Assembly: GCA_964448095.1 (NCBI GenBank)
Contig: CAYUUT010000006.1
Location: 1-53,602, forward strand
Source: an uncultured Candidatus Saccharibacteria bacterium
GTDB lineage: Bacteria > Patescibacteriota > Saccharimonadia > Saccharimonadales > UBA10212
Direction: 5' to 3'
DNA: 53,602 bases
Numbering within the stretch: the stretch's first letter is position 1; each line of letters starts with the position of its first letter. Below the pieces are notes generated by a model. The model made no database searches. It was not told the DNA's origin and saw only the letters and a program-made list of their open reading frames with translations. Positions 2,797-40,973 of the stretch are shown here, one piece after another. The position numbers and the translations under genes are program-made.

Positions 2797-3837
2797 TTAG
2801 GTAACGATGCCGCCGCCGAGGCATTCGTCCCCGCTATAGAAGACGGCGGATTGGCCGGGGGTTAGAGCCCGGACATCTTCATCCAGCTGGGCGGTCCAAA
2901 AATTACTTGACTTGTTAAGTAATTTTACATCGATGAATTTAGCGCGGTGCCGCAACCGGATTTTCAGTTTATCTTTTTTACTTGGTGGCTGGTTAATCCA
3001 ATGCATATCCGTGAGCCGCACTTCCCTGCTCCACAGCTTTTCGTCCTGCAAGTCGGTAGTCACATAAACTTTGTTCTTCTTCATGTCTTTGCCTATAACG
3101 TAATAAGGCAGGCCGCCGCCAACTTCCAGGCCATGCCGCTGGCCAATGGTATAGAAAATCGCTCCGTCGTGTGTGCCCACTTCCCTGCCACCGTGGTCGA
3201 TAATCTTGCCGGGCCTGGTTTTTACGTATTGCTGCAAAAATTCTTTAATACCGACCTTACCTACGAAGCAGATACCCATGCTGTCTTTTTTGTCAGCCGT
3301 GACCAGCTTGAATTTTTTGGCCAGTTGCCTGACCTGCGGCTTAGTCAAATCGCCGAGCGGGAATATGGTTTTTTGCAGAGCCTCATTTTTGACTCTATAT
3401 AGGAAGTAGGTTTGGTCCTTATTGCTGTCGGCTGCCATATATAGGCGTCCGGCATTGGTTTTGGCATAGTGCCCGGTAGCGATAAAATCGGCGCCGTCTT
3501 TCAGAGCCGTATTCAAAAATAGTTTGAATTTAACCTCTTGGTTGCACATAACATCAGGATTGGGCGTGCGGCCGGCCTTAAATTCATCCAGCATGTAGTC
3601 AACTACTTTGTGCCGGTATTCGGTTTCGAAATCGTACATCTTAAAATCAATACCCAGCTGCACAGCCACGCGCTTGGCGTCCTGATAATCTTCTTGCCAC
3701 GGGCAAGGCAGGCCCGGAAAGTCCTGGCTCCAGTTTTTCATATAAACACCCACGACGTCGTAGCCTTGCTGTTTTAGCAAAGCGGCGCTGACGGAGCTAT
3801 CAACCCCGCCGGAGAGCCCAACGTATACCGTCTTCAT
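2797..3837 (-). CDS. mnmA: tRNA 2-thiouridine(34) synthase
   Basis: SGGVDS, TPNPDVMCN, ATGHY, KDQTYFL, PGQSAVFY. Confidence 0.97.
   Translation of the reverse strand: MKTVYVGLSGGVDSSVSAALLKQQGYDVVGVYMKNWSQDFPGLPCPWQEDYQDAKRVAVQLGIDFKMYDFETEYRHKVVDYMLDEFKAGRTPNPDVMCNQEVKFKLFLNTALKDGADFIATGHYAKTNAGRLYMAADSNKDQTYFLYRVKNEALQKTIFPLGDLTKPQVRQLAKKFKLVTADKKDSMGICFVGKVGIKEFLQQYVKTRPGKIIDHGGREVGTHDGAIFYTIGQRHGLEVGGGLPYYVIGKDMKKNKVYVTTDLQDEKLWSREVRLTDMHWINQPPSKKDKLKIRLRHRAKFIDVKLLNKSSNFWTAQLDEDVRALTPGQSAVFYSGDECLGGGIVT
2904..2921. repeat. 18-bp palindrome TACTTRAC-TT-GTTAAGTA, copy 1 (inside mnmA)
   Basis: tacttgacttgttaagta; symmetry extends over 2899-2926. Confidence 0.8.
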
Positions 3838-3855
3838 CTGTTACAGTTTAACAGA

Positions 3856-4737
3856 TTAACCAAATGGCGGTTTGCCGGCGCGTAGTCTAGCCCGAATAAC
3901 TTGCAACCGGTGCTGCATACCTAACCAGAAGGCTATAAAGGTCAGAGCCGCCAGCGCGCCAATCACCCACCAAGGGACAAATCGAGTTTCGTTAATAACG
4001 GCGCCGTTGCTGCCCTTGCCGCTGCTCGACTGTTGGATTGGCCCATTAGCCACCGCCACCACCTGCAAAAAGGCCGAGAAGCCCTGGCTGTCGGTGGCTT
4101 TAATAGTCACGTTGTAGGTACCGGCGTTTTTATAAGTATGGTCGAGGGTAATGGCGCCCGGGAATTGTTGGCTCTTTAGGTCCGAGGATGAACTATCGCC
4201 CCAATCTATGCTGATGGCATAAGGTCCGGTACCACCGCTAAGGCTAATGGGCCAGGTCAAATCCGTATTGGGATCAGCCCCGCGTTTAGCGTATTGCGTA
4301 GTTAGAGTAATCAGCGATTCGGTGGTAGGCAGGGCATTATTAAAGTTGACCGTAACAGTATTGGAGACCGGGCTGGCTTGGTTTAGGTCGTCATAATCCT
4401 GGGCAGTCAGGTCATTCCGACCACTGAATAAGTCAATTTGTATGGAATAGCTGCTGCCGCTGCATTCACGCGAGCCGGCAAAAACATTATTTTTGAACAC
4501 CTCAACCAGAGTTCCCGATTGGCACAGGCCGGCTACAGTTATAGGTAAGTTGGAAAAGTTCTGGCCGTTACCAGGCACACTGATGGTTGGCGTTTGAGTG
4601 GGCGGGTTACCTTTAACCGTACCCTCCAGGCCGGCTGAACCGCTAAGGGTGGTTGTGGTGGCGCCAACAATGGCGGCGGGTCCAAGACACGAGAAAAAAA
4701 CTGCCACAACGGCTAATAACGGTAATACTCGCTTCAT
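3856..4737 (-). CDS. Secreted, membrane-anchored Ig-like + PKD-domain protein
   Basis: Signal peptide; PKD-like ISIDWGD...HTYKNAGTYNVTIKATD; C-terminal TM helix with basic tail. The ORF track starts at 4743; the ATG at 4737 is 7 nt after TATACT. Confidence 0.7.
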   Translation of the reverse strand: MKRVLPLLAVVAVFFSCLGPAAIVGATTTTLSGSAGLEGTVKGNPPTQTPTISVPGNGQNFSNLPITVAGLCQSGTLVEVFKNNVFAGSRECSGSSYSIQIDLFSGRNDLTAQDYDDLNQASPVSNTVTVNFNNALPTTESLITLTTQYAKRGADPNTDLTWPISLSGGTGPYAISIDWGDSSSSDLKSQQFPGAITLDHTYKNAGTYNVTIKATDSQGFSAFLQVVAVANGPIQQSSSGKGSNGAVINETRFVPWWVIGALAALTFIAFWLGMQHRLQVIRARLRAGKPPFG

Positions 4738-4828
4738 AAGCATTAGTATAATAATATAATCTTGTAGCGATTATAGCCAAATTTACCTTTGCGTTGACCG
4801 GCCATTTTGCTAAACTACAAACAGCTAT

Positions 4829-5836
4829 ATGAGGGAAACACTAAGAAAGCACCTAACAAGGGCGCTAGCAGCGGTGGCAGTTTTTGCTATTGCGTTGGGG
4901 ATAATTCCCCAGGCGATGGCGGCTACGGCAACCCCTAATAATGCTACCCAGTCCGGCAATAACGGTTTACAAATCTCCCCCACCCGGACCGACCTTGCGG
5001 TTAATCCTGGTGAATCTAGCACTTTCCAGATTAGCCTCAAAAACATCAGTAGTATCGCCCTAACCGCCAAAGCGTCCTTAAACGATTTTGAATCCGACGA
5101 TCAGACCGGCATACCCAAGCTTATAATTGACCCCAGCCAACACTCACCACGTTCCATAAAACCATTCTTGAATGGTTTTGGTGATGTACCACTGCAATCC
5201 GGCGAAACCAAAACTGTACAGTTAGAGGTTAATGTTCCCGCTAACGCCGCGCCCGGCGGTTATTATGGAGCCTTGCGCTATTCAGCCATACCGGTCACCG
5301 CCAGCCAGAATGTCGGCCCCAACCAGATTTCCCTGACCGCCAGCGTGGCATCTTTAGTGTTGCTGGAAATAAACGGCCAGGTCAACGAACAGCTTAATTT
5401 TGATTCAATGAGCGCCTTACGCCACGGTACAACGCAAGCGATTTTCTTTGGCAAAGGACCAGACCAGATAGCTATTAGGCTTACTAATAAAGGTAACGGT
5501 TTCTCCCAGCCCATTGGCCACGTGGTCATTAACAAGGGTGGCAAGTCGGTCTACAACTACGAGTTTAACAGCACGACCTCCGGCCTGCACAGCACCATCC
5601 TGCCGGACTCCTCCAGGACCTTCACCAATTCAATTAAGAACGTCAACGGCTTTGGCCAATACACCGTAGTCGCCAGCATCGCCTATAAGCAGGGTGACGA
5701 AGCTTTGACCTTAAGCCAAAAGTTCTGGGTAATTCCAAAGGGTATTGAGTACGTCCTACTGATACTGGTCATATTAATTGCAGCTGGTATCGGTCTGTGG
5801 CAACTGGCCACCCGAAGAGCCAAAACCAAACGCTAA
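4829..5836 (+). CDS. DUF916-like (WxL-interacting / chaperone-like Ig-fold) membrane-anchored protein
   Basis: Signal peptide; GLQISPTR...VNPGE and VPANAAPGGYYGAL resemble DUF916; second Ig-like domain; C-terminal TM with basic tail. Confidence 0.65.
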   Translation: MRETLRKHLTRALAAVAVFAIALGIIPQAMAATATPNNATQSGNNGLQISPTRTDLAVNPGESSTFQISLKNISSIALTAKASLNDFESDDQTGIPKLIIDPSQHSPRSIKPFLNGFGDVPLQSGETKTVQLEVNVPANAAPGGYYGALRYSAIPVTASQNVGPNQISLTASVASLVLLEINGQVNEQLNFDSMSALRHGTTQAIFFGKGPDQIAIRLTNKGNGFSQPIGHVVINKGGKSVYNYEFNSTTSGLHSTILPDSSRTFTNSIKNVNGFGQYTVVASIAYKQGDEALTLSQKFWVIPKGIEYVLLILVILIAAGIGLWQLATRRAKTKR

Positions 5837-5840
5837 CAAT

Positions 5841-6908: not shown

Positions 6909-6920
6909 GGCTTTTGGCCT

Positions 6921-9709: not shown

Positions 9710-9823
9710 CTAACTCCTCTACCCCTACCTCAAAGTTTGGGTTTTTTGTTAATGCTTAATTATTAACAAACTTTACCGCTGGTGACAAGTGTAAATTGGC
9801 TTATCCACAAGCCGTAAAAACCC

Positions 9824-10579: not shown

Positions 10580-10630
10580 TTACCCATGGATTATAGCATA
10601 AGGGGTTTAAAACATTGTCTGGTATGAATT

Positions 10631-12449: not shown

Positions 12450-12452
12450 AGG

Positions 12453-18389: not shown

Positions 18390-19532
18390 TTAATCACTGG
18401 TAACTTTGATGATTAGTCCGAGGACGAATTTTAGGTCCGCTGGCGTGGTTTCGCGCCCAAAACTAAAGCGCAAGGTAGAGCGAGCATCTTCTTTAGTCAA
18501 TCCGATAGCCGATAACACGTGCGAAGGTTCAGCGCTGCTGGCGCTACAAGCGCTACCTACCGCTGCCATCACACCAGCTTCGTCGAGCTGCATCATCAAA
18601 CGTTCGTTATCAATACCCGGGAATGTCACGCTAAGGATGTGGGGCGTGTGGTGCTTAGGCGAACCGTTGACCTTAGCCGAAGGCACGGCCTCGGCCAAGT
18701 CAGCTACAAACCCGACGCGAAGTTTTTCTAGTCTTTCGGACTCGGCTTTCCTGCCGGCTTGGGCTAATTCCAGGGCTTTGGCCAAACCAGCGTCGGCCGC
18801 CACGTTCTCAGTTCCGCTGCGGATGCCGAATTCCTGACCGCCGCCCAAGATCAGCGGCTCCAGATTTATGCCGGCTTTGATAAACAGCGCGCCGCTTTGC
18901 TTGGGCCCGTAAATCTTCCCGCCGTTAACAGTCATTAAATCTACGCCCAGCCGCGAAACATGTAGATCCAGATAGAGCGGCGCTTGGGCGGCATCGGTAT
19001 GCAGGTATAGCGGTAAGTCATTGCCCTTGGATTTGCGCAAAATACTTAACTTGTTAAGTATTTTTGCGACTTCGCGCAGCGGCTGGACTGTACCTAACTC
19101 GTTATTGACCAACATAATGCTTAGCAAAACTGTCTTGTCACCGACCATTTTTTCTAATTTAGCCAGGTCAATGATGCCCTGCTGGTTAACTGGAATTAGG
19201 CGATGGGCAAAACAGCCTGCCGGCGCCAGTACCGAATCGTGCTCAATAGCGCTGGTCAAAACTTCGGCATCAGGAAATTTTCGCAGCACTCCTTGAATAG
19301 CTAAGTTATTAGCTTCAGTAGCGCCGGCTGTGAAGATAATTTCGGCTGGACGGCTGCCCAGGATTTTTGCGATGCCGGAACGAGCCTGCTCCAAAGACTG
19401 GCGGGCCGCCCGGCCCGCCAGATAGGTCGCCGACGGGTTATAAAAAGCTTCGCTAAAAAACGGCTCCATAGCCGCTAAAACCCGTGAGTCTACCGGTGTA
19501 GCCGCGGCGTAGTCCAGATAGATTCGCTTCAA
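18390..19532 (-). CDS. iscS: Cysteine desulfurase (IscS/NifS)
   Basis: YLDYAATTP, HTDAAQA, GGKIYGPK (PLP lysine), RSGTEN, GSACSA. Confidence 0.93.
   Translation of the reverse strand: MKRIYLDYAAATPVDSRVLAAMEPFFSEAFYNPSATYLAGRAARQSLEQARSGIAKILGSRPAEIIFTAGATEANNLAIQGVLRKFPDAEVLTSAIEHDSVLAPAGCFAHRLIPVNQQGIIDLAKLEKMVGDKTVLLSIMLVNNELGTVQPLREVAKILNKLSILRKSKGNDLPLYLHTDAAQAPLYLDLHVSRLGVDLMTVNGGKIYGPKQSGALFIKAGINLEPLILGGGQEFGIRSGTENVAADAGLAKALELAQAGRKAESERLEKLRVGFVADLAEAVPSAKVNGSPKHHTPHILSVTFPGIDNERLMMQLDEAGVMAAVGSACSASSAEPSHVLSAIGLTKEDARSTLRFSFGRETTPADLKFVLGLIIKVTSD
19043..19060. repeat. 18-bp palindrome, copy 2 (inside iscS)
   Basis: tacttaacttgttaagta flanked by aaaa/tttt. Confidence 0.8.
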
Positions 19533-29291: not shown

Positions 29292-29309
29292 ACCCGAAAT
29301 TTTGTTTTT

Positions 29310-29324
29310 GGGGATTTAAGCCCC
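29310..29324 (-). repeat. Cassette repeat R1
   Basis: aattttgtttttGGGGATTTAAGCCCCgg; supplies the TAA of 29316-29996. Confidence 0.85.
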
Positions 29325-29996: not shown

Positions 29997-30022
29997 AGTC
30001 CAATCATAACAAATTTTGTTTT

Positions 30023-30038
30023 GGGGAATTTAAGCCCC
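30023..30038 (-). repeat. Cassette repeat R2
   Basis: aaattttgttttGGGGAATTTAAGCCCCgg; supplies the TAA of 30030-30923. Confidence 0.85.
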
Positions 30039-30923: not shown

Positions 30924-30964
30924 AGTCCATCAATAATACCAAACCAGGAAAAAATTTTGGGTTT

Positions 30965-30980
30965 GGGGGATTTAAGCCCC
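30965..30980 (-). repeat. Cassette repeat R3
   Basis: aaattttgggtttGGGGGATTTAAGCCCCggagcg. Confidence 0.85.
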
Positions 30981-30988
30981 GGAGCGGG

Positions 30989-31402
30989 CTACTTTACGAC
31001 TATGGTTCCGCGCATCGACGGATGGATACTGCAGTGATACTGGAATGAACCGGTTTTATTGAATGTAAAGCTGTAGGTTGAGCCAGGCTGTATGTCGCCG
31101 CTGGAGGGGCCGCCAACATTACTTAAATCATCAATTACTGTATGCGCCACGCTATCATTATTTGTCCAAGTGACTGTGGCGCCTTTGGCAACAGATATTT
31201 GGGAAGGCGTGAACATCATATTCTTAATATCTATGCTGCCAGAGGCCGCTGATTGGTTAGAACTTGATGCTGAACTATTGTTATTCGTACTATTTTGAGT
31301 GGAAGTGTTTGAGCTATTATTCGACTTGTTGTGATCATAAATAGCCCAGCCTCCTATCGCCAGAACCGCAACTACGATAATTGCTACCATTACTTTATTC
31401 AT
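30989..31402 (-). CDS. Cupredoxin (plastocyanin/amicyanin-like) with N-terminal anchor
   Basis: FTPSQISVAKGATVTWTNND, HTV, YHCSIHPSM (type-1 copper ligands H, C, H, M). Confidence 0.9.
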   Translation of the reverse strand: MNKVMVAIIVVAVLAIGGWAIYDHNKSNNSSNTSTQNSTNNNSSASSSNQSAASGSIDIKNMMFTPSQISVAKGATVTWTNNDSVAHTVIDDLSNVGGPSSGDIQPGSTYSFTFNKTGSFQYHCSIHPSMRGTIVVK

Positions 31403-31471
31403 TAAACTCTCCTCTTTACAGCTCTATTATAGGCCTTTATAAATTTTTGCGTGCCGAGAAGTTTATTTCTT

Positions 31472-31487
31472 GGGGGATTTAAGCCCC
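31472..31487 (-). repeat. Cassette repeat R4
   Basis: tttcttGGGGGATTTAAGCCCCggg. Confidence 0.85.
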
Positions 31488-31507
31488 GGGCTTTATGCTT
31501 ACAATAA

Positions 31508-31960
31508 CTAGGGCGTGGGACAATCAGGAACTCTAGGGTCTACGGCCACGTCGTTGCTAGCGTTACCATTCTCGAACGTATTTGCAGCCACGTAATCACC
31601 ACTATAGGGTTCTGGACTCTCTATGTGATACCACTTGCCCTCAGCACTAGGGGCGGCATCTACAGGGCCAGTAGCCAGACAGTCAACATCAACCTTATTG
31701 CCTTTTTCCAAGTGATGACCAACGCCAGAGGCGTTTACGTAATCCCTAAAGGTATTAGCTCCGAACTGCTCAGTTTCTTGGTGGTTAGAACCCTTTAATA
31801 ATACTTTCTGGCCAAGTTGAACATTTGGCGGCGCAGAAGTTTCGCTTTTTGTAGCACCGCCGCAACCTGCCCCTGCCAGAGCCAAAGCACCGCCTGAAAT
31901 TATAATTCCTCCGCGTATTCTCCAGTTAGTTTCAAAGAAAATTGAATTCATCTTTCTCAT
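31508..31960 (-). CDS. Putative lipoprotein with SH3-like cell-wall-binding domain
   Basis: AAGGAGG SD before ATG 31960; lipobox-like LAGAGC; VDVDCLATG...KWYHI...DYVAANTF. Confidence 0.6.
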   Translation of the reverse strand: MRKMNSIFFETNWRIRGGIIISGGALALAGAGCGGATKSETSAPPNVQLGQKVLLKGSNHQETEQFGANTFRDYVNASGVGHHLEKGNKVDVDCLATGPVDAAPSAEGKWYHIESPEPYSGDYVAANTFENGNASNDVAVDPRVPDCPTP

Positions 31961-32028
31961 ATGCGCCTCCTTTATCATGATTCTCTACCCCAGTAAGTAT
32001 ATTTGCAAGCATGAGCATTTTTGTTTTT

Positions 32029-32043
32029 GGGGGATTTAAGCCC
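32029..32043 (-). repeat. Cassette repeat R5
   Basis: tttttgtttttGGGGGATTTAAGCCCtc. Confidence 0.85.
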
Positions 32044-32124
32044 TCAATAATAAATTGGGTCGTGCGCCGGCCCGGTCTAGGAGATGCTCACTAGATCCGG
32101 GTCGGCGCGTCGCTCGCGACCTCC

Positions 32125-33222
32125 TTATGCATGTGACTGCGGCTTCTTGGGAGCCTCGCCCATCTCGCGCAGATGTCGGTAATGGGACCGGACCGCCGCC
32201 CAGAGCGTAGGCTGGCAGTGATACTGCAGCCCGTGCCTTTCGCACACCGCCCGCACCATCTTGTAGATTCGCGGGTAGTGCACGTGGGGAAGCCACGGGT
32301 AGAGGTGGTGCTCGATCTGGAAGTTCAGGCCGCCGAGTAACCACCTGAGAGCTCGGTTGTCGGGGCTGAAGTTCTGAGTCGTCTGAACCTCGTGTACCTT
32401 CCATAAGGTCTCGTTGGCCAGTTCCGGCGTCGTGAACATTGCCTCGTCGTTGCAGTGAGCCGCTTGGAAGGTCAGCGTCACCACGAAGCTGAACAAGAAC
32501 GACAGGCCGAGAAAGACCAACAGAACCATTGCCACTCCGTGTAGCGACCAGTGCAGCCACATCGGCAGGGCCAGAGCCCAACCGAAAAACAGCAGCTTGC
32601 CGGTCAACAGATGGACGAATCCGCGGTAGCCGCGCCTTTTTAGCTCGAAGCAACCAATGCGTCCGTTTTTGTAGGACACAAAGTCGCCCCAAACTTGCCA
32701 GCGCAGCGTCACGAAGCCGTACACCAGCCACAGGTACAGGTGCTGCCACCGATACCAGGGCCGGTATTCCTGGGTTGAGGCCAGACGGGCGAAAGGCGGT
32801 GCGTTGATGTCCTCGTCCATCTGGTCGATGTTTGTCCAGGTGTGATGAGCCACGTTGTGGCTGACTTGCCACCCGGGACTGCTACCACCCAGAAACTCGA
32901 GCGAGAAGCCCGCCAGGTTGTTAACGAAGGCATGCCGGCTGAAAGCCCCGTGGTTTCCATCGTGCATGACGTTGAATTCCACGGCGATTAGCGCCAGCAC
33001 CACGTTGAGGCCAAGAAGCACAACCTCCCACCAGTTGCTGGCGAAGAGGATCAGGGCCGGGCAAGCGATAGCCGCCCAGAGGACGACAACCGCCGCTTTG
33101 CGGTGGAGCTCCCTGTAGCCGTTTTGCTTTACGCCTTCCTGGCTGTAGTAGTTGTCGAAACCTTGCTTGAGGTCATCCGAGAAGGCGCCGCCTCCCCGAA
33201 AGTTAACCTTAGGCCTAGGCAT
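32125..33222 (-). CDS. Acyl-CoA/linoleoyl-CoA-type fatty acid desaturase, GC-rich
   Basis: His boxes HDGNHG, HNVAHH and QIEHHLYP; AGGAGG SD. Confidence 0.92.
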   Translation of the reverse strand: MPRPKVNFRGGGAFSDDLKQGFDNYYSQEGVKQNGYRELHRKAAVVVLWAAIACPALILFASNWWEVVLLGLNVVLALIAVEFNVMHDGNHGAFSRHAFVNNLAGFSLEFLGGSSPGWQVSHNVAHHTWTNIDQMDEDINAPPFARLASTQEYRPWYRWQHLYLWLVYGFVTLRWQVWGDFVSYKNGRIGCFELKRRGYRGFVHLLTGKLLFFGWALALPMWLHWSLHGVAMVLLVFLGLSFLFSFVVTLTFQAAHCNDEAMFTTPELANETLWKVHEVQTTQNFSPDNRALRWLLGGLNFQIEHHLYPWLPHVHYPRIYKMVRAVCERHGLQYHCQPTLWAAVRSHYRHLREMGEAPKKPQSHA

Positions 33223-33334
33223 GACACCTCCTCATTGTTGTTGTGCATAGGATGTCAAAGAGCTTCTACAAGCATATCAAAGAAAGGTTAGAAGACAATG
33301 TTTTACTACATTTATAAAGGTTTTAGAGATTTTT

Positions 33335-33351
33335 GAGAGATTTAAGCCCCC
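33335..33351 (-). repeat. Cassette repeat R6
   Basis: tttttGAGAGATTTAAGCCCCCg; supplies the TAA of 33342-33884. Confidence 0.75.
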
Positions 33352-33884
33352 GCCGGCGTTAGCCTAAGGCTATCGGGTCTTATAGCTGTAATCGGGCAGA
33401 AGACATCTGGCGGTGTCGGGCTACTGTCTATGGGCGGGGAGTCTGGGGTCGAATCCGTATCGGAGTAGACCAAACAAATTTCTGGCACGTCTATAACTAA
33501 GCCTTTGTCTGTCTGTTGACGCGTGGTAAGAAGGCCAAAACGTTTAAACCTTCCATGGCCAGCTTGGCCTTCTGTTCCTGGCTGGATTTCGCAAACAGCA
33601 GTCTCTGTGGCTATCGGCCAAAAACCTAGCGTGGCCGTATCAATTCTGGGTAAAACCAAATATGCCCTGTCAAAAACCAAATCGACCAGGTCGCCCCTGT
33701 TCTGCTCATACTCTTGGTCCAGCAGCTGAGCAAAGCCGTGAATCCAATACGGATCATATTCGACTAATAAATGCCTGCGCACTTGCTCAAACTTCGATTC
33801 AGGCATTTGTAATGAACGCTCTGTTCTTTCGGTGGCCATAATTGGCAATACTTTACCATAATTAACCATTTGCCGCAAATACAA
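33342..33884 (-). CDS. Hypothetical protein
   Basis: Fills the interval between R6 and R7; start codon uncertain; ends PAGA. Confidence 0.55.
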   Translation of the reverse strand: MYLRQMVNYGKVLPIMATERTERSLQMPESKFEQVRRHLLVEYDPYWIHGFAQLLDQEYEQNRGDLVDLVFDRAYLVLPRIDTATLGFWPIATETAVCEIQPGTEGQAGHGRFKRFGLLTTRQQTDKGLVIDVPEICLVYSDTDSTPDSPPIDSSPTPPDVFCPITAIRPDSLRLTPAGA

Positions 33885-33903
33885 TAAGAGGGCTTTTGTT
33901 TTT

Positions 33904-33917
33904 GGGGAATTTAAGTC
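33904..33917 (-). repeat. Cassette repeat R7
   Basis: ttttgtttttGGGGAATTTAAGtc. Confidence 0.75.
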
Positions 33918-33940
33918 TTGAGTGGGTCGTTTATAAAGTT

Positions 33941-33971
33941 GGGAGATGCGCAGGGTTGCAGCGCACCTCCC
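33941..33971. terminator. GC-rich hairpin after the small-ORF operon
   Basis: gggagatgcgc pairs with gcgcacctccc. Confidence 0.55.
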
Positions 33972-33989
33972 AGGTGTTGTTGGAAGCTT

Positions 33990-34190
33990 CTACTTGAGCT
34001 CGAGGTCGGCACCGCTCCAGGCGTAGACCTCCGCGCCGTCGTCTAGGCGGATCCTGCAGCGGCCGTCGCGGTTGACCTCATCGATCACCACGCCGTGCTT
34101 CCCTTGATGGGCGCTCAGGTCACTGCTGCCGTTGGCAGAGGTGTTGCCAACGACAATGACACGGTCGTTGAGTCTAATGTAGCGTTCCAC
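33990..34190 (-). CDS. Small KOW/SH3-like protein, 66 aa
   Basis: GGAAGGAG SD with GTG start; DRVIVVG...GKHGVV...CRIRLDDG. Confidence 0.55.
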   Translation of the reverse strand: MERYIRLNDRVIVVGNTSANGSSDLSAHQGKHGVVIDEVNRDGRCRIRLDDGAEVYAWSGADLELK

Positions 34191-34224
34191 GATTCTCCTT
34201 CCCAGCCTCGGCCGAGCTTGAGTA

Positions 34225-34341
34225 CTAGAACAGGTGTTTCAGAAGGCCTCCGGCTTCCCAGCCCCCGATGCATGCGGCTACGACGATGCAAGCTGCCGCC
34301 GCTGTCGAGACAATGAGAAGCGGAATATCTGAAATACGCAT
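34225..34341 (-). CDS. Small hydrophobic protein, 38 aa
   Basis: Not in the ORF track. GGGAG SD; MRISDIPLLIVSTAAAACIVVAACIGGWEAGGLLKHLF. Confidence 0.45.
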   Translation of the reverse strand: MRISDIPLLIVSTAAAACIVVAACIGGWEAGGLLKHLF

Positions 34342-34357
34342 CTCTTCTCCCTTCGAC

Positions 34358-34567
34358 TCAGAGGCGCGAATAGCGCCGGAGGTTGAGGACGTTGGTCAGC
34401 ATCCAGAACGCTTCGAACACGATTGCGGGCATCCAGCCCCAGTAGTGGGCGAAGACCACAATTCCGATCGGCTGGATGATGAGCTCGACGAGCTTACGCG
34501 CCCAGAGTCTTCTCAGACCCTTGGGTATGTCGTAGTTCTGAAGCAAAGCTTCCTCCTCAAAAGACAA
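34358..34567 (-). CDS. Small membrane protein, 69 aa
   Basis: TTG start; GC-rich third positions; hydrophobic core. Confidence 0.45.
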   Translation of the reverse strand: MSFEEEALLQNYDIPKGLRRLWARKLVELIIQPIGIVVFAHYWGWMPAIVFEAFWMLTNVLNLRRYSRL

Positions 34568-34669
34568 GTGCTAACCTCGGCATCAGCCGAGACTAACTCA
34601 AGGCTGATATTGTCGAAATTCAGCTATATTTTACAATAAAACACTCAAAAAAACAAGAAGAGGAAGTTT

Positions 34670-34686
34670 GGGGGGATTTAAGCTCC
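34670..34686 (-). repeat. Cassette repeat R8
   Basis: gtttGGGGGGATTTAAGCTCCggg. Confidence 0.8.
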
Positions 34687-34689
34687 GGG

Positions 34690-35550
34690 TTATAGCAGTA
34701 ACAAACATAGGCCGGCCGTAACGCCGATTATGCCGGCGGCTTTGCGATATGTAAGTTCGTCCCGGAAGAATAAGACCGCCAGGATAGTTACCAAAGAAAT
34801 TGATCCGGCGTTGATAGCATTCACATAGCCAACGTTTGGCGCCAGTTTTATAGCCTCGAAATTACCTAGGTTAAAAAGCGTGGAGAAGACGCCGGTAGCC
34901 AGCAATAGCCAGCCTTCTTGGGCCGTCAGTTTCTTTATTGAGCCTAAGCGGACCTTGTCGGCCACAATAATGCAGAGCGTGACAATCGCATAAATATAAA
35001 TAAGGAAGGCCATGGTATCCACGCCGTGGTTAAAGAGATACTTGGACGACAGCGACAGAAATCCCCAGGCAAAAAACGCGGCGAATGACAATAAAACCCA
35101 TCTGTTGCTGGAAACTTTCTTGGCAGCCCTAGGAGTGATGGTAATAAGCGCCGAAAAACCCACAATGACCAAGATAGCTATAGCTTTACGCCAAGTAAGG
35201 TCGGCATTCAGAAAAATTACCGCAACGATGGTTGTGAATAGCACGTAACTTTTGGAAAGCATCAAGCTGTAGCCCGGATTTGGAGCGATACTTATGGCTT
35301 TGAGTGAAACTTTATTGCCGCCATAGGAAAAAATGACGGCTGTCACCAAAATGACCAACGCTTGCCACCAGGAAATATGCAAGCTGTGCTGGCCACCCAC
35401 GCCAATGACTAGATACGCCGCTAAAGGAAGAGCAAACATCGCTAAGTTAGTCAGATGTATGGGCGTCTTGAGCAGCGAGGATTTACGGACACTCAAATAC
35501 ATCGCCACCGATGCGAAGAACATCATCAGACTATAGCCAACCCAAGACAT
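34690..35550 (-). CDS. EamA/DMT-family transporter
   Basis: About 10 TM in two repeats; APNPGYS and APNVGYV. Confidence 0.85.
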   Translation of the reverse strand: MSWVGYSLMMFFASVAMYLSVRKSSLLKTPIHLTNLAMFALPLAAYLVIGVGGQHSLHISWWQALVILVTAVIFSYGGNKVSLKAISIAPNPGYSLMLSKSYVLFTTIVAVIFLNADLTWRKAIAILVIVGFSALITITPRAAKKVSSNRWVLLSFAAFFAWGFLSLSSKYLFNHGVDTMAFLIYIYAIVTLCIIVADKVRLGSIKKLTAQEGWLLLATGVFSTLFNLGNFEAIKLAPNVGYVNAINAGSISLVTILAVLFFRDELTYRKAAGIIGVTAGLCLLLL

Positions 35551-35576
35551 AAGCTAATCATAGCAAATGACCCAGG

Positions 35577-35591
35577 AATTTTGGGTTTGGG
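35577..35591 (-). repeat. Degenerate cassette repeat R9 (T-rich arm only)
   Basis: aattttgggtttggg matches the left arm of R3; the ATTTAAG core is absent. Confidence 0.4.
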
Positions 35592-35612
35592 CTGGTTGTT
35601 TGCCGGCTAAGT

Positions 35613-36188
35613 TTAGGAGAACTTTATGATGGCTTCTAGCACAATGGCTAGAGCGATTAGACACCAGATAAATATATCCAGACCACTGGCTACCATGCGG
35701 TCTGCTATTTTTTGGTAACGCGCGCTAAGATGTAGGTTTTTATAATTCAATCTAAACCAAGCTCCACTAATCGCCAGCACTCCTCCGTAACAGAAAACGC
35801 AGTAAATGCACAAACTGCCGATGTTAAAAATGCTTTGCCAGAAGTACCAAAAACCAAACCCGATGAAAAATAGGGCCATAGCCTGATAGACCAGGCGCAG
35901 CTTGGCGTTAATCTGGGCGCCCGTCCAGCCGATTAGACCAGCAGAGAACATAATCGCGAAAAAACTAATGCAAAGCATCGAGTTAGGGAAGCCAAAAACC
36001 GAACTTTGATGAGCGTTGAGAATATTAGAGCAATTAAAAACCGAGCTTAGGTTACAGCTTAGTACCGAGTGGGCATTTTTGAGCAGTGTTATCTTTTCCA
36101 GCATCTGCAGAAAAGATGCGGTAAAGCCAATAGCGGCTCCGAAAGTTAGTATTTTATAGAGTGTTTTTGTAGAGGTGAGTTGTCTCAT
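35613..36188 (-). CDS. Vitamin K epoxide reductase (VKOR) family protein
   Basis: CNLSSVFNCSNIL, FGFPNS, CIYC redox motif. Confidence 0.9.
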   Translation of the reverse strand: MRQLTSTKTLYKILTFGAAIGFTASFLQMLEKITLLKNAHSVLSCNLSSVFNCSNILNAHQSSVFGFPNSMLCISFFAIMFSAGLIGWTGAQINAKLRLVYQAMALFFIGFGFWYFWQSIFNIGSLCIYCVFCYGGVLAISGAWFRLNYKNLHLSARYQKIADRMVASGLDIFIWCLIALAIVLEAIIKFS

Positions 36189-36238
36189 AAGCCGTATAGT
36201 GTTTTTCTTGAACCGTACTGTGATTTGAGTCGCAGTTA

Positions 36239-36257
36239 ATTTTGGGAATTTATATCC
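36239..36257 (-). repeat. Degenerate cassette repeat R10
   Basis: aattttGGGAATTTAtatcc. Confidence 0.45.
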
Positions 36258-36814
36258 TAGAGCTTTAGGTTGAAGGCTCCGCCAATTTGCCCGGGTTTTA
36301 ATATTTGCAATGGCTGGCTCTTTGAAGGATCCAAAGCCACTCCTTCAACATCCGCCGAGGCTTTCAGTGTGTACGTATAACTGTTTGAGTTGAATACCTC
36401 GCTAAGTGACTGCAGCTCTTTAAGACCGTGGGCCACTGCTTGACCGGCGCTGCCCTCAGGCAGTTGAGATTCTACTGCCGCCCCGGCGTTCATGACAATG
36501 CTCAGCTGCAAGGTTTGGGACTGCTGCGGCGCCAGGCTAAAAACTTGGGTGTTTTCAGCTCGGGCAACTGTTTGGAAAGTGGTGGCATTAACTGGGTCTA
36601 TGCCTGACTTCGTTGGTTGTTGAAAGTTGAGGCTTTGAGATTGCGCAATTATCTCAACAGTAACCTTATTAATTTGTACTTGAGTGTCTTCGGCTGTCAC
36701 AGTTACGCTGACCGGCAGCGATGCGTCTTGCATAGACACGCTGGCAGGAGCCTGCATTTCAACCTTCACCCCACCGTGAGTTAAATTTTTCTTAAAGCTA
36801 CTAAATATACCCAT
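36257..36814 (-). CDS. Spo0M/arrestin-like beta-sandwich protein
   Basis: MGIFSSFKKNLTHGGVKVEM..., YTLKASADVEGVALDP; TATAAT-6-ATG. Confidence 0.55.
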   Translation of the reverse strand: MGIFSSFKKNLTHGGVKVEMQAPASVSMQDASLPVSVTVTAEDTQVQINKVTVEIIAQSQSLNFQQPTKSGIDPVNATTFQTVARAENTQVFSLAPQQSQTLQLSIVMNAGAAVESQLPEGSAGQAVAHGLKELQSLSEVFNSNSYTYTLKASADVEGVALDPSKSQPLQILKPGQIGGAFNLKL

Positions 36815-36851
36815 AGCATGATTATACGCCCACCGGGGGAAATTTTGGGTT

Positions 36852-36866
36852 GGGGAGATTTAAGAC
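36852..36866 (-). repeat. Cassette repeat R11
   Basis: aaattttgggttGGGGAGATTTAAGac. Confidence 0.75.
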
Positions 36867-36872
36867 GTCTAC

Positions 36873-37070
36873 TTATTTTTTCTTTGGGTGGAACAGGTGG
36901 TAGAAATTTAGGTCGTAGCCCCAGCCAAAGGCGCGCGGGGTCCATATACGCGGGTCATCCGGGTTCCAAAGCCGCGAGCGGTACCTTGCCCAGGTTGGCC
37001 AGCGCCAGTCATATGGCACTCCCCAAAATTTCCCCACCCTATCTTGCTTGTTATTAGGAGCAGTACTCAT
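36873..37070 (-). CDS. DUF5808-like small protein
   Basis: GVPYDWR, LWNPDDPRIWTPRAFGWGYDLNF. Confidence 0.75.
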   Translation of the reverse strand: MSTAPNNKQDRVGKFWGVPYDWRWPTWARYRSRLWNPDDPRIWTPRAFGWGYDLNFYHLFHPKKK

Positions 37071-37100
37071 AACTGAAGTATACGCTCACACAGAGGATAG

Positions 37101-37130
37101 AATTTTGTTTAACGGGATTTAGGTCCCGGG
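37101..37130 (-). repeat. Cassette repeat R12
   Basis: aattttgtttaacGGGATTTAGGTCCCggg. Confidence 0.65.
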
Positions 37131-37147
37131 TGGCCTTTGCTTAAATA

Positions 37148-37191
37148 TGTGACGGTTATTACGCGTAATAAATGTTGTGACTATTAACACA
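37148..37191. promoter_or_regulatory. Pair of CRP/FNR-type boxes, copy A
   Basis: TGTGA-cggtta-TTACG and TGTGA-ctatta-ACACA, starts 28 bp apart. Confidence 0.55.
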
Positions 37192-37335
37192 GACATTAGA
37201 AACCAGGACTAATATACTTATGCTTAATTAGTCGATGGGAATAGGTGCACTATTTGAAGGAGATCATTACTTAAGAGTTGGTCTTTGTACAAAATCGCTC
37301 TAAGGGAAAACAACATAAAGAGAAAGGTACTAATC

Positions 37336-37530
37336 ATGTCTCACACATTCAGCAATAAGAAGTTCAAAGTCCATTACCGAGAATATCTAGCCAATACTAA
37401 CGAACCACGGGAGACTCTCAACGACATAATAGCAGACGAAGAGCTTGACGTTGGTTTAATAAGTAATGCTTATTACGAAAGAAGGAAATTACGGCGTGTA
37501 GCCGAGAGACTGAGACAAGCCCCTATATAG
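37336..37530 (+). CDS. Small basic protein, 64 aa, paralog of 39760-39957
   Basis: AGAAAGG SD with ATG at 37336; YREYLAN..EP...YY.RRKLR...ERLR is shared with the paralog. Confidence 0.7.
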   Translation: MSHTFSNKKFKVHYREYLANTNEPRETLNDIIADEELDVGLISNAYYERRKLRRVAERLRQAPI

Positions 37531-37552
37531 GCGGATGTGTTCGATACATCGC

Positions 37553-37585
37553 AAAAAGAGCCCCTTTGTGAGGAGGCTCTTTTTT
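37553..37585. terminator. Bidirectional intrinsic terminator
   Basis: aaaaagagcc...ggctcttttt. Confidence 0.75.
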
Positions 37586-37598
37586 AAATATAGTCTTT

Positions 37599-37614
37599 GG
37601 GGAATCCAAGCCCC
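37599..37614 (-). repeat. Cassette repeat R13
   Basis: ctttGGGGAATCCAAGCCCCggagcg; same right flank as R3. Confidence 0.7.
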
Positions 37615-37729
37615 GGAGCGAATCTGGTATGATAAATTAAATGGCAACTTTCAAAGGCTTCTAGCCTACTCCTTACTTCAGCCAAAAGTCCGGCCTTGGT
37701 CGGCAATATTTTAATGTTAAGGAGTAAAT

Positions 37730-38263
37730 ATGAAACTTGGTAAATTAGATTTTGTTCCCGTGCAAGATAGGCTAGATTTGGTCGCTGAGCCAGTTGGCGA
37801 AGCGATCAAGGAAAAAGCGTTAAGCGATGTTTTAGTAGCCAAGATTAAGCCCGACCTGGCTGACACGGCCGCCTTTTGCGAATATTACAATATTGGCCTG
37901 GAAGTATCGGCCAATTGCATTGTGGTTGAAGCGAAGCGAGCGGATAAAACTTGGTACGCGGCCTGTGTGATATTGGCGACTTCAAGAGCCGATGTTAATG
38001 GCGTGATACGTCGCCATCTGGGCGCCAAAAAAATATCTTTTGCCCCGATGGATAGAGCCACATCAATCACGTCGATGGAATACGGCGGAATTACACCTAT
38101 AGGTCTGCCCTTGGATTGGCCTATTTTGGTGGATAGCGCAGTAGCCAAAACTGCTCACGCAGTAATTGGCAGCGGCTTACGGAAGTCTAAACTGTTGGTT
38201 CCTGGTAGTTCGTTCCACAAGTTGCCCAACGCGACAGTGATGGATATCACCCAATCCAGCTAG
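37730..38263 (+). CDS. YbaK/aminoacyl-tRNA deacylase-family protein
   Basis: SANCIVV, KKISFAP, MEYGGITPIGLP, IGSGLRKSKL. Confidence 0.88.
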   Translation: MKLGKLDFVPVQDRLDLVAEPVGEAIKEKALSDVLVAKIKPDLADTAAFCEYYNIGLEVSANCIVVEAKRADKTWYAACVILATSRADVNGVIRRHLGAKKISFAPMDRATSITSMEYGGITPIGLPLDWPILVDSAVAKTAHAVIGSGLRKSKLLVPGSSFHKLPNATVMDITQSS

Positions 38264-38278
38264 CCAGAGTATAGGGAA

Positions 38279-38296
38279 TACTTAACTTGTTAAGTA
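38279..38296. repeat. 18-bp palindrome, copy 3 (intergenic)
   Basis: gggaatacttaac-tt-gttaagtattccc, 13-bp arms spanning 38274-38301. Confidence 0.8.
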
Positions 38297-38326
38297 TTCC
38301 CTGCTCCCCCGGGAGAGTTTGTTTTT

Positions 38327-38339
38327 GGGGATTTAAGGC
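38327..38339 (-). repeat. Cassette repeat R14
   Basis: tttgtttttGGGGATTTAAGgc. Confidence 0.75.
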
Positions 38340-38373
38340 TGAACTCCTAGTTTGCTATGATTTTAGTCTAAGT

Positions 38374-38844
38374 ATGGATAAGTCTGATTTTCTGAATAAG
38401 TATTTGCCCTTGTTCAGCATTCATTTTCACGATAACGTTTTTTCAAAAGACAACAGCATCAAAGTCATTGAGCAAAAACTGCCATTTAAAGAATTGCTGG
38501 AGTTTTATATTCTGCGAACAGTGAAAAACGGCTTGCCGGATACACGGGGCATAGAAGAAAGGGAGAATGACCTCAACTCAAAATTAATCACCCTTTATGA
38601 AGCCCGGCAGAATCCCAAGAAATGGGGCTTGGAGTCGAAGGGCAGAATTATACCCTCGCTTAAAGATATCCGGCCAATACCGGTAGCTGTTGACCCTGAT
38701 AGCGGAAATTGTTTAATCCTAGACTCCAATCATCTGCTAACTAACTTGAACTGCCCATCGGATACCGTAATACCACTCGCGCTAATTGTCGGGCCAAATC
38801 TTGAGGCGCTCGGACCAGATTTTATTATCCTCAGCCGGCAATAG
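38374..38844 (+). CDS. Hypothetical protein
   Basis: ATG 38374 after TATGAT (the ORF track extends across repeat R14); no family recognised. Confidence 0.55.
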   Translation: MDKSDFLNKYLPLFSIHFHDNVFSKDNSIKVIEQKLPFKELLEFYILRTVKNGLPDTRGIEERENDLNSKLITLYEARQNPKKWGLESKGRIIPSLKDIRPIPVAVDPDSGNCLILDSNHLLTNLNCPSDTVIPLALIVGPNLEALGPDFIILSRQ

Positions 38845-38845
38845 T

Positions 38846-38861
38846 TTTTGGAGTTTAAGTC
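38846..38861 (-). repeat. Cassette repeat R15
   Basis: ttttGGAGTTTAAGtc, immediately after the stop codon of the CRP gene. Confidence 0.55.
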
Positions 38862-39539
38862 TTAGCCCAGAGCTGCTTGTAGTTTGTCGACATCAATGAC
38901 AGTAAATAGATGGTCGGTTTGACCCATTAGTCCTTCTTCGAAAAGTAATTCTAAAGCCCGGCTGGCCGTCTCTCGGGATAGATTGATAGAGTCGGCGATT
39001 TCTTGATGAGTTATAGGCGCATTAATAAGAATTTCTTTACCACGCCTTTCGCCAAACCTCTCAGCTAAACATATTGATTCCGCGATAACTCTTTCGCGGG
39101 CGGATCGATATTCAAGGGTTTGGATCCGCTGCGTGTAAATACTAATGATGTTGACGGTCTGGTTCAGTATCTCTTGAGAAAGCCAGGTGTTCCTACCCAG
39201 CGAGGAACGCAATTTATCTTTACTGGCCCTTAGCATTTTGACGTCGCTCATTGCTTGGTAGAACATGCCGGTGGCGTGAGCTCCGTCTAAAGCCCAAGGT
39301 AGCGGGATGAACTCGCCAGCTTTGTGGATTAACAAAAGGTTGTTCTGACCATTGCGTGAAATTGTGTATGCCTTAACAAATCCGGATTTAATTAGATAGA
39401 CACCTTCTGGCTCCGCGTAGCCTTGGATAATCACTTCGTCTTTGGAAAAGTTCATTAAATGGCCGTCGCTAAAGTGGGCGACTATGCTATCGTCATCGGG
39501 TTTGCGTGTCGGCACGGCTGCCAGTGCTCTTATGGGCAT
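38862..39539 (-). CDS. CRP/FNR-family transcriptional regulator
   Basis: YLIKSGFVKAY, GEFI, HTH ITHQEIADSINLSRETASRAL. ATG 39539 with TACACT-6-ATG is preferred over the ORF-track start at 39770. Confidence 0.9.
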   Translation of the reverse strand: MPIRALAAVPTRKPDDDSIVAHFSDGHLMNFSKDEVIIQGYAEPEGVYLIKSGFVKAYTISRNGQNNLLLIHKAGEFIPLPWALDGAHATGMFYQAMSDVKMLRASKDKLRSSLGRNTWLSQEILNQTVNIISIYTQRIQTLEYRSARERVIAESICLAERFGERRGKEILINAPITHQEIADSINLSRETASRALELLFEEGLMGQTDHLFTVIDVDKLQAALG

Positions 39540-39572
39540 AGCTTTAGTGTATAGGTATTTGCATTTTAAAAA

Positions 39573-39616
39573 CGTGACACTTATCACATTTGATAAATAT
39601 TGTGATGCTTGACACA
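39573..39616. promoter_or_regulatory. Pair of CRP/FNR-type boxes, copy B
   Basis: aaaCGTGA-cactta-TCACAttt and TGTGA-tgcttg-ACACA, 28 bp apart, between the divergent CRP gene and the small ORF. Confidence 0.7.
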
Positions 39617-39759
39617 GACTTTTAAAGAATGGGCTAATGCACTTACGCTTAAGCTTGTCGACAGGATTTGAGGGGTTATTCGAAGGAGAGTCTTGCTTAA
39701 ACTGCCGGGTATTTTTGCAAAGCGTTCTATAAATACAGTGCCTAAAAGAAAGCAGGATT

Positions 39760-39957
39760 ATGTCACACACATCCAGTAGTAAGGGGCGCTACCGAGAATA
39801 TTTAGCCAATTTCAAAGAACCAGAGGATGTCATCCACGATGGAGTCGAGCGCGGTAGAGCCGAGGCGGAACTTGTTGCCGGCTTAATAGAAAATATATAT
39901 TACCAAAGAAGGAAGTTGCGGCACGCAGTCGAGAGGCTGAGGTACTACTCTCTGTAG
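39760..39957 (+). CDS. Small basic protein, 65 aa, paralog of 37336-37530
   Basis: MSHT...YREYLANFKEPED...YYQRRKLRHAVERLR. Confidence 0.7.
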   Translation: MSHTSSSKGRYREYLANFKEPEDVIHDGVERGRAEAELVAGLIENIYYQRRKLRHAVERLRYYSL

Positions 39958-40007
39958 AACAAAACAATCTCGCATCAAAAAAGCACCAGATTTCTCTGAT
40001 GCGTTTT

Positions 40008-40411
40008 TGGTGGAGTTGGAGGGAATTGCACCCTCGTCCGATTGGTAACATGCTTGGTGACTACAGGTTTAGGCTGTTTGAAATTTCTTAAGCTCAACCA
40101 TAAAAACAGTCAAAAAAGGGAAAGCTAAAGTCCATTAATCTTAGTAAGCACGGGCGGACAAACCCGGCAACTTAAGCAATCAGAAAATATAGCGCTTTTC
40201 GTCCTATCTGATGTCAGACGATTAGCGGTAGCCTATAAAATTAGGCTACGTTGAAGGCCAATTGGCGAGGAGCAAACAAGTTTGCAACCGCTTCTTTGAC
40301 ACTTACAGAAAGATTTTTTACATCTATCTTGGTGCACCGGATAACGTTCAGTGCGACCCGACCTGCCACTTCAGCTTGTTAAAGTCCATTCGTCGAATAA
40401 AATTCAACCCC
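40008..40411 (-). ncRNA. ssrA: tmRNA
   Basis: 5' GGGGTTGAATTTTATTCGAC; 3' GGACGAGGGTGCAATTCCCTCCAACTCCACCA; tag ORF 40300-40241 VKEAVANLFAPRQLAFNVA. Confidence 0.92.
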
Positions 40412-40454
40412 ATGCAAATATTATATCATCTTGCTAAAGAATAAGCAATATGGT

Positions 40455-40934
40455 CTAGTCGGTGCCAAAGATTTTTTGGTTGCGGCGGGTTTCGGCGCTG
40501 AATGCGGTTAGCAGACGCTCGGTCATTTTGATAAATTCTTTTACTTCTGTGCTGCTTCCTACCAGTAGCTTGAGAAGTTCTGTCTGTTGGTCAGCCAGCA
40601 GCTTTTCGGCTTGGTCTTTTTTGTGACTGCCCTTGGCGGTAAGTTTAACGTCACGCTGGCGGCCATCTTTTTTATTCTTAGTGATGGTCACTAGGCCATC
40701 ATCTTTCATGACTTGCAGCTGGCGGCTAACGTTGGCTTCGGTTTGGCGCAGCTTGATTGAAACCACGCGTTGGGACTTAGTAGAGTCTTTATCGAGCACT
40801 CCCATGATGCGTGCATGGCTAAGCCCTACCCCAAGTTTGACCATCAAAAGGTCGTCGGCTATCTGTTGTAAAACAAACGACAGTTGGTGCAGGGGAGTGG
40901 GTGAGTGGACGGGAGCTAAGTCATTGTCGGCCAT
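40455..40934 (-). CDS. MarR-family transcriptional regulator
   Basis: SQRVVSIKLRQTEANVSRQLQVMKDDGLV, DGRQRDVKLTAKG; ATG 40934 after TTGACT-18-TACAGT-6. Confidence 0.88.
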   Translation of the reverse strand: MADNDLAPVHSPTPLHQLSFVLQQIADDLLMVKLGVGLSHARIMGVLDKDSTKSQRVVSIKLRQTEANVSRQLQVMKDDGLVTITKNKKDGRQRDVKLTAKGSHKKDQAEKLLADQQTELLKLLVGSSTEVKEFIKMTERLLTAFSAETRRNQKIFGTD

Positions 40935-40955
40935 GATTTTACTGTAGTCCAAAAA

Positions 40956-40973
40956 TACTTAACAAGTCAAGTA
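40956..40973. repeat. 18-bp palindrome, copy 4 (overlaps the marR -35 box)
   Basis: tacttaacaagtcaagta, reverse complement of copy 1; arms aaaaatactt/aagtattttt. Confidence 0.8.

Follow-up and report, generated by a model that had tools for sequence, protein, structure and literature searches.

What does one palindrome do when it recurs inside housekeeping genes, between genes and over a promoter? The question is raised by a stretch of 53,602 nucleotides from an uncultured Candidatus Saccharibacteria bacterium (order Saccharimonadales; assembly GCA_964448095.1, contig CAYUUT010000006.1, positions 1 to 53,602), hereafter the window, in which the 18-mer TACTTRACTTGTTAAGTA has four perfect copies where 100 shuffles lead one to expect 0.01. 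The 18-bp cores lie at 2904-2921 (+), 19043-19060, 38279-38296 and 40956-40973 (-). Two are intragenic: a 24-bp copy at 2901..2924 (no strand assigned) lies inside mnmA (2797..3837, minus strand; Pfam tRNA_Me_trans), where it encodes K-LLNKSS-N, and another at 19040..19063 (likewise unstranded) lies inside a class-V aminotransferase gene for an IscS/NifS-like cysteine desulfurase (18390..19532, minus strand), where it encodes K-ILNKLS-I. The third is intergenic, 15 bp past the stop codon of a YbaK/tRNA_edit gene in a region without orthologues in the related genome G012, and its flanks extend it to a 30-bp palindrome, AGGGAA-core-TTCCCT (38273..38302, unstranded). The fourth (40953..40976, minus strand, 24 bp) stands upstream of a marR gene, of which it is the predicted operator, and its TTGACT (40970-40965) forms the -35 box. 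The initial annotation had reported the four 18-mers at these places, with LLNKSS in mnmA and ILNKLS in the iscS-like gene, had called the third intergenic, had put the fourth over the marR -35 box and had judged their number beyond chance; all of this holds, and the symmetric flanks it described are also present, the conserved motif being, at 24 bp, longer than it had supposed. On balance we favour the view that at marR the palindrome is the operator of the MarR protein encoded there, and that the extra near-perfect copies are further MarR sites, which would act by occupancy.

The window is contig C6 of a 965-kb genome (G000, 98.7% complete), and the named relatives with which we compared it are Saccharibacteria metagenome-assembled genomes (MAGs) from soil, peat and groundwater. 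Genome-wide, G000 holds 15 exact matches and about 23 with at most two mismatches, against none for the reversed control, so that the further enrichment for which the initial annotation had proposed to look is indeed found. The full conserved motif is a 24-bp palindrome, AAW-TACTTRAC-NN-GTYAAGTA-WTT, and a census of all palindromes shows it to be the sole over-represented one both in G000 and in G012, whose 776.5-kb contig carries 45 sites. Sites with 0, 1 and 2 mismatches number 13, 8 and 2 in G000 and 28, 12 and 5 in G012; beyond that, matches fall to chance level, and controls give none. The sites are near-perfect or absent, a sharply bimodal pattern that sets them apart from ordinary regulons with their graded sites, and half-sites on their own show no enrichment. 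Across 24 genera of the window's family the copy number spans 0-48, the expansion there being to 2-48 copies per genome, and in other families it is 0-3. In three genomes of other Saccharibacteria lineages with 3-5 copies (G044, G045 and G042), nearly all copies are of a version with central ACGT, TACTTAACGTGTTAAGTA, whereas the window's family mostly has central TT/AA. Literature searches on the motif string and on Saccharibacteria plus MarR turned up nothing relevant.

The copy upstream of marR is the most constant of all. MarR orthologues occur in 37 of 41 relatives. Upstream sequence is available for 29 of these loci, and in 27 of them the palindrome (with up to three mismatches) stands about 21 bp before MarR residue 1, every one with TACTTGAC on the sense strand. 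The layout is also kept in relatives: TTGACT within the palindrome, 18 bp, TAnnnT, 6-7 nt and ATG. In the window, a -10-like hexamer, TACAGT (40941..40946, minus strand), follows TTGACT by 18 bp and precedes the marR ATG by 6 nt, and TAnnnT is found at matching spacing upstream of marR in most relatives. This geometry implies a putative leaderless marR promoter whose -35 element and spacer are covered by the palindrome. The marR-upstream palindrome is present, too, in five other families whose genomes hold no more than 1-3 copies (G025, G026, G027, G032, G034 and G035); that the site is fixed even there suggests that the ancestral copy was the marR operator and that its ancestral role was autoregulation. 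Three of the four genomes without a MarR match also lack the motif. Comparison of related genomes thus lends good support to the palindrome being the predicted operator of an autoregulated MarR-family protein.

What can be said of the protein itself? The marR gene (40455..40934, minus strand) encodes a 159-residue winged-helix protein, the presumed binder of the palindrome, that passes Pfam MarR_2 with 29.3 bits (cut-off 27). Its AlphaFold2 model (monomer; predicted local distance difference test 84.5, predicted template-modelling (TM) score 0.75) retrieves, in a Foldseek search of the PDB, a top 50 composed entirely of MarR-family structures, with TM up to 0.87, among them DNA complexes of SlyA, MepR, MftR, MosR and MarR. 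The SlyA-DNA complex (3q5f) ranks 22nd, and the protein is no nearer to SlyA than to other MarR structures; sequence similarity to solved MarR proteins is weak (E about 1e-3). The recognition helix, QTEAN(V/I)SRQL (QTEANVSRQL in the window), is nearly invariant across the order. In the window's family the wing, which reads KNKKDGRQR in this protein, is strongly basic, which suggests a fit with the conserved A/T flanks of the 24-bp motif. As read from its sequence the protein contains no cysteine, so sensing by thiol oxidation is unlikely.

The marR-side palindrome is placed between the stop codon of ksgA/rsmA (rRNA adenine dimethylase; 41113..41880, minus strand), a conserved neighbour upstream of marR, and the marR start. 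In most relatives, for example at loci L025, L028, L030, L031, L034, L039 and L048, the stretch from the ksgA end to the palindrome contains a conserved C-rich element, CCCCTGCCC, set 5-15 bp before the operator of marR. In the window the element (ccttccctttccc) is harder to recognise; it may be the 3' arm of a terminator for ksgA, or else a second site for a protein. Directly downstream of marR is ssrA, the transfer-messenger RNA gene (40008-40411, minus strand; tag peptide VKNLSVSVKEAVANLFAPRQLAFNVA), preceded by a promoter-like TTGCTT...TATAAT. Genes on the other side of marR are collinear with G012, unlike the open reading frames (ORFs) at about 34-40.4 kb (YbaK-like, Crp/Fnr-like and several others), which have no G012 orthologues; the whole region from about 29000 to 40400 looks variable. 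The 38279 site lies here, about 25 bp from a degenerate GGGGATTTAAGGC repeat.

If the marR copy is an operator, what keeps the same sequence inside housekeeping genes? About 16 of the 23 G000 sites are syntenic in G012, and eight of the twelve intragenic ones occupy exactly orthologous codons there, in proteins with a median identity of 68% (the hosts being uvrB, apbE, a Mur ligase gene, dus, iscS, tsaB and the genes for a pseudouridine synthase and exonuclease I). Third-codon-position identity between the two genomes is 94% (51/54) in the motif codons and 45% over the rest of these eight genes (P=1e-14). In a comparison of 30 relatives, the iscS site is present in seven genera with the invariant codons CTT AAC AAG TTA AG and the uvrB site in about five; within the site-bearing genera (5-7) the degenerate motif codons are invariant (3/3), as against 3-8% gene-wide. 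Orthologues of iscS and uvrB that lack the site have the same length and a different peptide, with no indel, and the uvrB genes of relatives contain near-match pre-sites. Furthermore, in 29 of 32 intragenic copies the reading frame is the one that yields (K/E)(I/L)LN(K/M/L/T)(L/S)S(I/N). Siteless orthologues of equal length, pre-sites and codon conservation together indicate that the copies arose in place by substitution and, as judged from these codons, are held by selection on the DNA rather than on the peptide. The mnmA site of the window is shared by G005, G015 and G022, has one mismatch in G010 and G002, and is absent from G001 and G012, a patchiness that shows that sites turn over. The initial annotation had suggested examining synonymous sites in just these two genes; the motif codons are invariant across seven genera in iscS and recur in several relatives in mnmA. 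A distant relative offers a small parallel: in a MAG of another Saccharibacteria family (L255:1330-1923, plus strand), recX, which is downstream of recA and a NUDIX gene, contains two palindromes 93 bp apart in repeated helices, EKLLNLLSN and EKLLNKLSN, which account for two of the three copies in that genome.

We infer from these comparisons that MarR binds the palindrome, that one protein serves all copies, and that the dispersed copies have a role of their own. The palindrome would be a high-affinity site for a dimeric MarR-family protein which, when bound over the -35 element and spacer of the leaderless promoter, would repress its own synthesis, an arrangement probably ancestral to Saccharimonadales. 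In the window's family, extra copies would have arisen by point substitutions in short spacers at gene ends and in tolerant codons of housekeeping genes, the tolerant context being the peptide pattern given above, and would then have been kept by selection on the DNA sequence. As to what bound copies might do, two candidate roles stand at roughly equal odds: obstacles to RNA polymerase, both inside genes and at their ends, in a genome where Rho was not detected, or positional marks on the origin-side part of the chromosome. Readings of the dispersed copies as a regulon, decoys, terminators, a mobile element or the sites of another binder are less likely than either. Rho, MinC, DivIVA domains and full-length SMC were not detected in G000 at its 98.7% completeness, which is compatible with the roadblock or the landmark role and proof of neither.

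The case for positional marks comes from the map. In G012, strand bias and guanine-cytosine (GC) skew point to a terminus at about 75 kb and an origin at about 500-570 kb, and dnaA lies at 569 kb; sites are dense at 200-615 kb and scarce at 62-200 kb and 615-776 kb. Only two of the 45 lie in the terminus-side 38.5% of the chromosome, a post hoc P of 1e-7 for site-poor regions that were delimited after looking at the data, which tempers the result; for the four largest gaps, a permutation test returns P=0.002. Spacing within the dense part is somewhat more regular than random (coefficient of variation 0.69, P=0.014). Base composition can be rejected as the cause of the regional bias, since chance-level matches with 4-6 mismatches are uniform along G012. 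Other genomes agree: in G000, contigs C2, C5, C7 and C11, which have no sites, correspond to the site-poor parts of G012, and the contigs rich in sites to its dense part; 19 of the 26 sites of G005 are on the contig bearing dnaA and marR; and the terminus-side region of G012 is collinear with two contigs free of sites, G008:C3 (175 kb) and G005:C4. Five further Saccharibacteria genomes with large contigs have too few sites for an origin/terminus test. The depletion on the terminus side, thus seen in four genera (G012, G000, G005 and G008), bears on the question of position that the initial annotation had posed. One of its two explanations, a lineage-specific site for chromosome organisation, receives some support, the sites being near-perfect, promoter-indifferent and terminus-depleted, while its alternative, in which the palindrome is this MarR's operator and the regulon unusually intragenic, is the better supported, by the 27 of 29 relatives, by the predicted MarR fold and by the conservation of synonymous sites.

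Two observations on the map stand apart from this argument. A palindrome is conserved in the dnaA-dnaN spacer (G000 C4:19342-19359; G012 C1:569813-569830), among CCACA-type repeats that may be variant DnaA boxes, in which case this site may be linked to the replication origin. Four G000 contigs, C3 (115 kb, GC content 56%), C8, C13 and C16, have almost no reciprocal best hits in G012 and no palindrome (for C3, hits for 1 of about 100 genes and a GC difference of 5 points); accessory islands, a separate replicon and mis-binned DNA are possible explanations.

A bolder form of the landmark role can be offered tentatively, and we think it less probable than not: that MarR and its 24-bp palindromes together serve the ultra-small Saccharimonadales as a system of chromosome landmarks, an autoregulated repressor having been recruited to it in much the way TetR-family SlmA was. 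Occupying 20-50 conserved positions on the origin side, MarR would mark the nucleoid or give it structure, with nucleoid occlusion, organisation of the origin domain or genome-wide transcription boundaries as the options. That the sites were written into housekeeping genes would follow from a coding fraction of about 90%, and the setting would be bacteria in which Rho, MinC, DivIVA, a Noc paralogue and full-length SMC were not detected.

Several points weigh against our favoured view, in which the dispersed palindromes are MarR sites that act by occupancy. The identification of MarR as the binder rests on promoter geometry and on co-occurrence in related, non-independent genomes. One genome, G013 (96% complete), has four copies without a MarR match, and two others, G028 and G031, have MarR and no recognisable motif upstream of it. 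Copy numbers from 0 to 48 among genera with a nearly identical recognition helix are odd for an important structural role, and in comparison across relatives we found no feature of the MarR protein that tracks copy number. Of the two candidate roles, the landmark is troubled by eight G012-specific sites at 10-62 kb, beside the inferred terminus and parB; the roadblock leaves the regional bias unexplained, and one inside an essential gene should be costly.

Where the copies lie with respect to genes bears on a more conventional explanation, an ordinary regulon in a genome poor in transcription factors, with MarR repressing or modulating uvrB, recX, sbcB, rnhB, iscS, mnmA, dus, tsaB and others. 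In its favour, the MarR family is one of repressors that bind palindromic operators, particular genes keep their sites across genera, and there is a loose excess of hosts for DNA repair and tRNA modification. Yet of 68 sites in G000 and G012 together, 34 are intragenic, though some 90% of the genome is coding, and of the 34 intergenic ones 15 lie in convergent spacers, which make up about 13% of intergenic bases, and 3 in divergent spacers, where about 27% would be expected; these counts are approximate, which is a further caution, because the gene calls come from a crude ORF caller. Nine of the 68 supply a gene's stop codon. A -10 hexamer at promoter spacing from the dispersed copies is not enriched among the G000 and G012 sites, so we reject the notion that they are promoters. 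The convergent bias, the few divergent sites and the missing -10, together with the weakness of the RNA hairpin considered below, speak against a promoter regulon as well as a plain terminator. Many sites are deep within a gene, hundreds of codons from its start, the set lacks a degenerate tail of weaker matches, the regional depletion is not predicted, and the hosts share no clear functional theme. An ordinary regulon is for these reasons unlikely. Since the dispersed copies are not at promoters, they would act through the bound protein rather than by control of initiation.

Could the extra copies be there simply to titrate the protein? As decoys they would buffer free, autoregulated MarR without any local function, and this would accord with a repressor that is predicted to be autoregulated, with extra sites that are perfect, with a location that seems indifferent to promoters, and with a copy number that varies widely between genera. 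Against this stands the selection that fixes synonymous codons, and even amino acids, at matching positions across genera; buffering predicts neither such positional conservation nor a regional bias, and we regard titration as very unlikely.

More doubtful still is a protein-free, RNA-level explanation in which A-tract, stem and T-tract form a bidirectional intrinsic terminator. The layout of A-run, palindrome and T-run is suggestive, as are the enrichment between convergent genes and at stop codons, the failure to find Rho in G000, and some flanks that lengthen the stem with different bases. But the hairpin is weak, with one G-C pair per arm: the core folds with -2.7 kcal/mol, and with A5/U5 flanks with -7.4 kcal/mol, against -5.3 +/- 3.3 kcal/mol for random 34-mers. 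The stem is conserved in sequence rather than covarying, half of the copies are in coding sequences, at conserved codons of essential genes, and the asymmetric TTGAC/GTTAA variant would put a G.U pair into some mRNAs and an A.C mismatch into others. The marR copy is moreover embedded in a promoter. An RNA hairpin as the main role was rejected on these grounds. A canonical terminator after the 38279 site had also been considered; a terminator scan made no call there and that reading was dropped.

We give hardly any credence to a small mobile or selfish palindromic element, of the kind of repetitive extragenic palindromes, miniature inverted-repeat transposable elements or Rickettsia palindromic elements, or to functionless neutral spread, even though the copies are near-identical, copy number differs greatly between genera and in-frame copies in coding sequences recall the Rickettsia elements. 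Siteless orthologues show no insertion in 30 relatives at iscS or uvrB, and the uvrB pre-sites point to substitution; syntenic sites are shared by genera whose synonymous positions have diverged to saturation; a 24-bp unit in unrelated flanks would be too short for homogenisation by gene conversion; and lone half-sites are, again, no commoner than expected.

Equally little credence attaches to another binder, be it the lineage's ParB on a divergent parS or, for example, the Crp/Fnr-like neighbour (38862-39770). ParB is present in G000 (C9:24848-25126, the sole ParB_N match in the genome), canonical parS (TGTTNCACGTGNAACA) has no match within two mismatches in G000 or G012, the palindromes are mostly origin-side with one in the dnaA-dnaN spacer, and parS sites are also intragenic palindromes. 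However, G005 (96% complete) keeps some 24-26 sites with no ParB_N match, the parB-bearing contig C9 of G000 is free of sites, and it is at the marR promoter rather than at parB that the motif is fixed; its sequence, with a 2-bp spacer, is different from parS. The ParB-parS reading was rejected, and a ParB-like binder, on which the initial annotation had touched, is unlikely. A single parS-like GGTTTCACGTGAAATT occurs in G012, at 602,220. The Crp/Fnr-like protein was likewise rejected, as it has no orthologue in G012 with its 45 sites, and the 5-2-5 core, TTAAC-NN-GTTAA, recalls a MarR operator of the SlyA type. Two further candidates can be dismissed together: a MatP-matS system, because the distribution of sites is the opposite of terminus-confined matS, and DNA uptake sequences, which are single oriented motifs in hundreds to thousands of copies, about 1 per kb, where G000 has some 23 in 965 kb and no enrichment of lone half-sites.

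How does the palindrome compare with systems already described? MarR autoregulators with a palindromic operator over their own promoter include E. coli MarR with marO, S. aureus MepR, and SlyA/RovA. The window protein resembles them in its predicted winged-helix MarR fold and in a site that would cover its own -35 element and spacer, with A/T flanks that suit minor-groove contacts by the wing. The SlyA/RovA consensus is TTAGCAAGCTAA; the core TTAACAAGTTAA agrees with it at 10 of 12 positions and has the same 5-2-5 layout. Unlike these systems, there are here 20-50 near-perfect extra copies, half of them in housekeeping genes, under selection and mostly away from promoters, and the window MarR is cysteine-free, has no known ligand and is distant from solved MarR proteins (E about 1e-3).

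Nearer to the dispersed copies are SlmA, of the TetR family, and Noc, each with tens of near-perfect palindromic sites that are mostly intragenic and scarce near the terminus. The likeness lies in a protein of predicted transcription-factor type with tens of near-perfect, often intragenic sites scarce near the terminus, in bacteria where neither Min nor DivIVA was found. The candidate binder differs in belonging to the MarR family, being neither a TetR protein nor a ParB paralogue; terminus depletion is imperfect, given the G012 cluster at 10-62 kb, copy number is very variable, and no link to FtsZ or the membrane is known. With ParB-parS the palindromes share a conserved 16-24 bp sequence that is often intragenic, kept positions, an origin-side bias and a site at the gene of the presumed binder itself; unlike parS, they have another sequence, are present in G005 where ParB was not found, are fixed at marR, and have no detected full-length SMC to load.

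The roadblock role likewise has precedents. Intragenic CcpA cre sites, CodY and the lac O2 operator are protein roadblocks to elongating RNA polymerase, and the palindromes are like them as operator-type sites that, by analogy, may stand in the way of transcription inside or after genes; those cases are individual and gene-specific, whereas here the sites are genome-wide, near-perfect and regionally biased. To our knowledge, bacteria of the candidate phyla radiation have very few regulators, and we know of nothing on their chromosome organisation, segregation or division-site placement. Were the dispersed palindromes roadblocks, they would show how a minimal genome without Rho bounds its transcription units; were they landmarks, a small repressor family would, for the third time and independently, have been drawn into chromosome biology. 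A small protein and a defined site make either role testable although the organisms are uncultured, and the evidence suggests for the dispersed copies a chromosome role independent of promoters, of a kind not known to have been described for the MarR family.

The last comparison is with binding sites inside genes in general. Intragenic PhoB sites in E. coli have been reported to be unconserved and transcriptionally inert (PMC9934606). The palindromes resemble these in that many transcription-factor sites would lie inside genes, and differ from them in being conserved at synonymous positions across genera. What they appear to represent is an operator that has been multiplied and kept in essential genes by selection at the DNA level, to the point of fixing codons and even amino acids, and such conservation runs counter to the usual view of intragenic transcription-factor sites as unconserved noise (PMC9934606).

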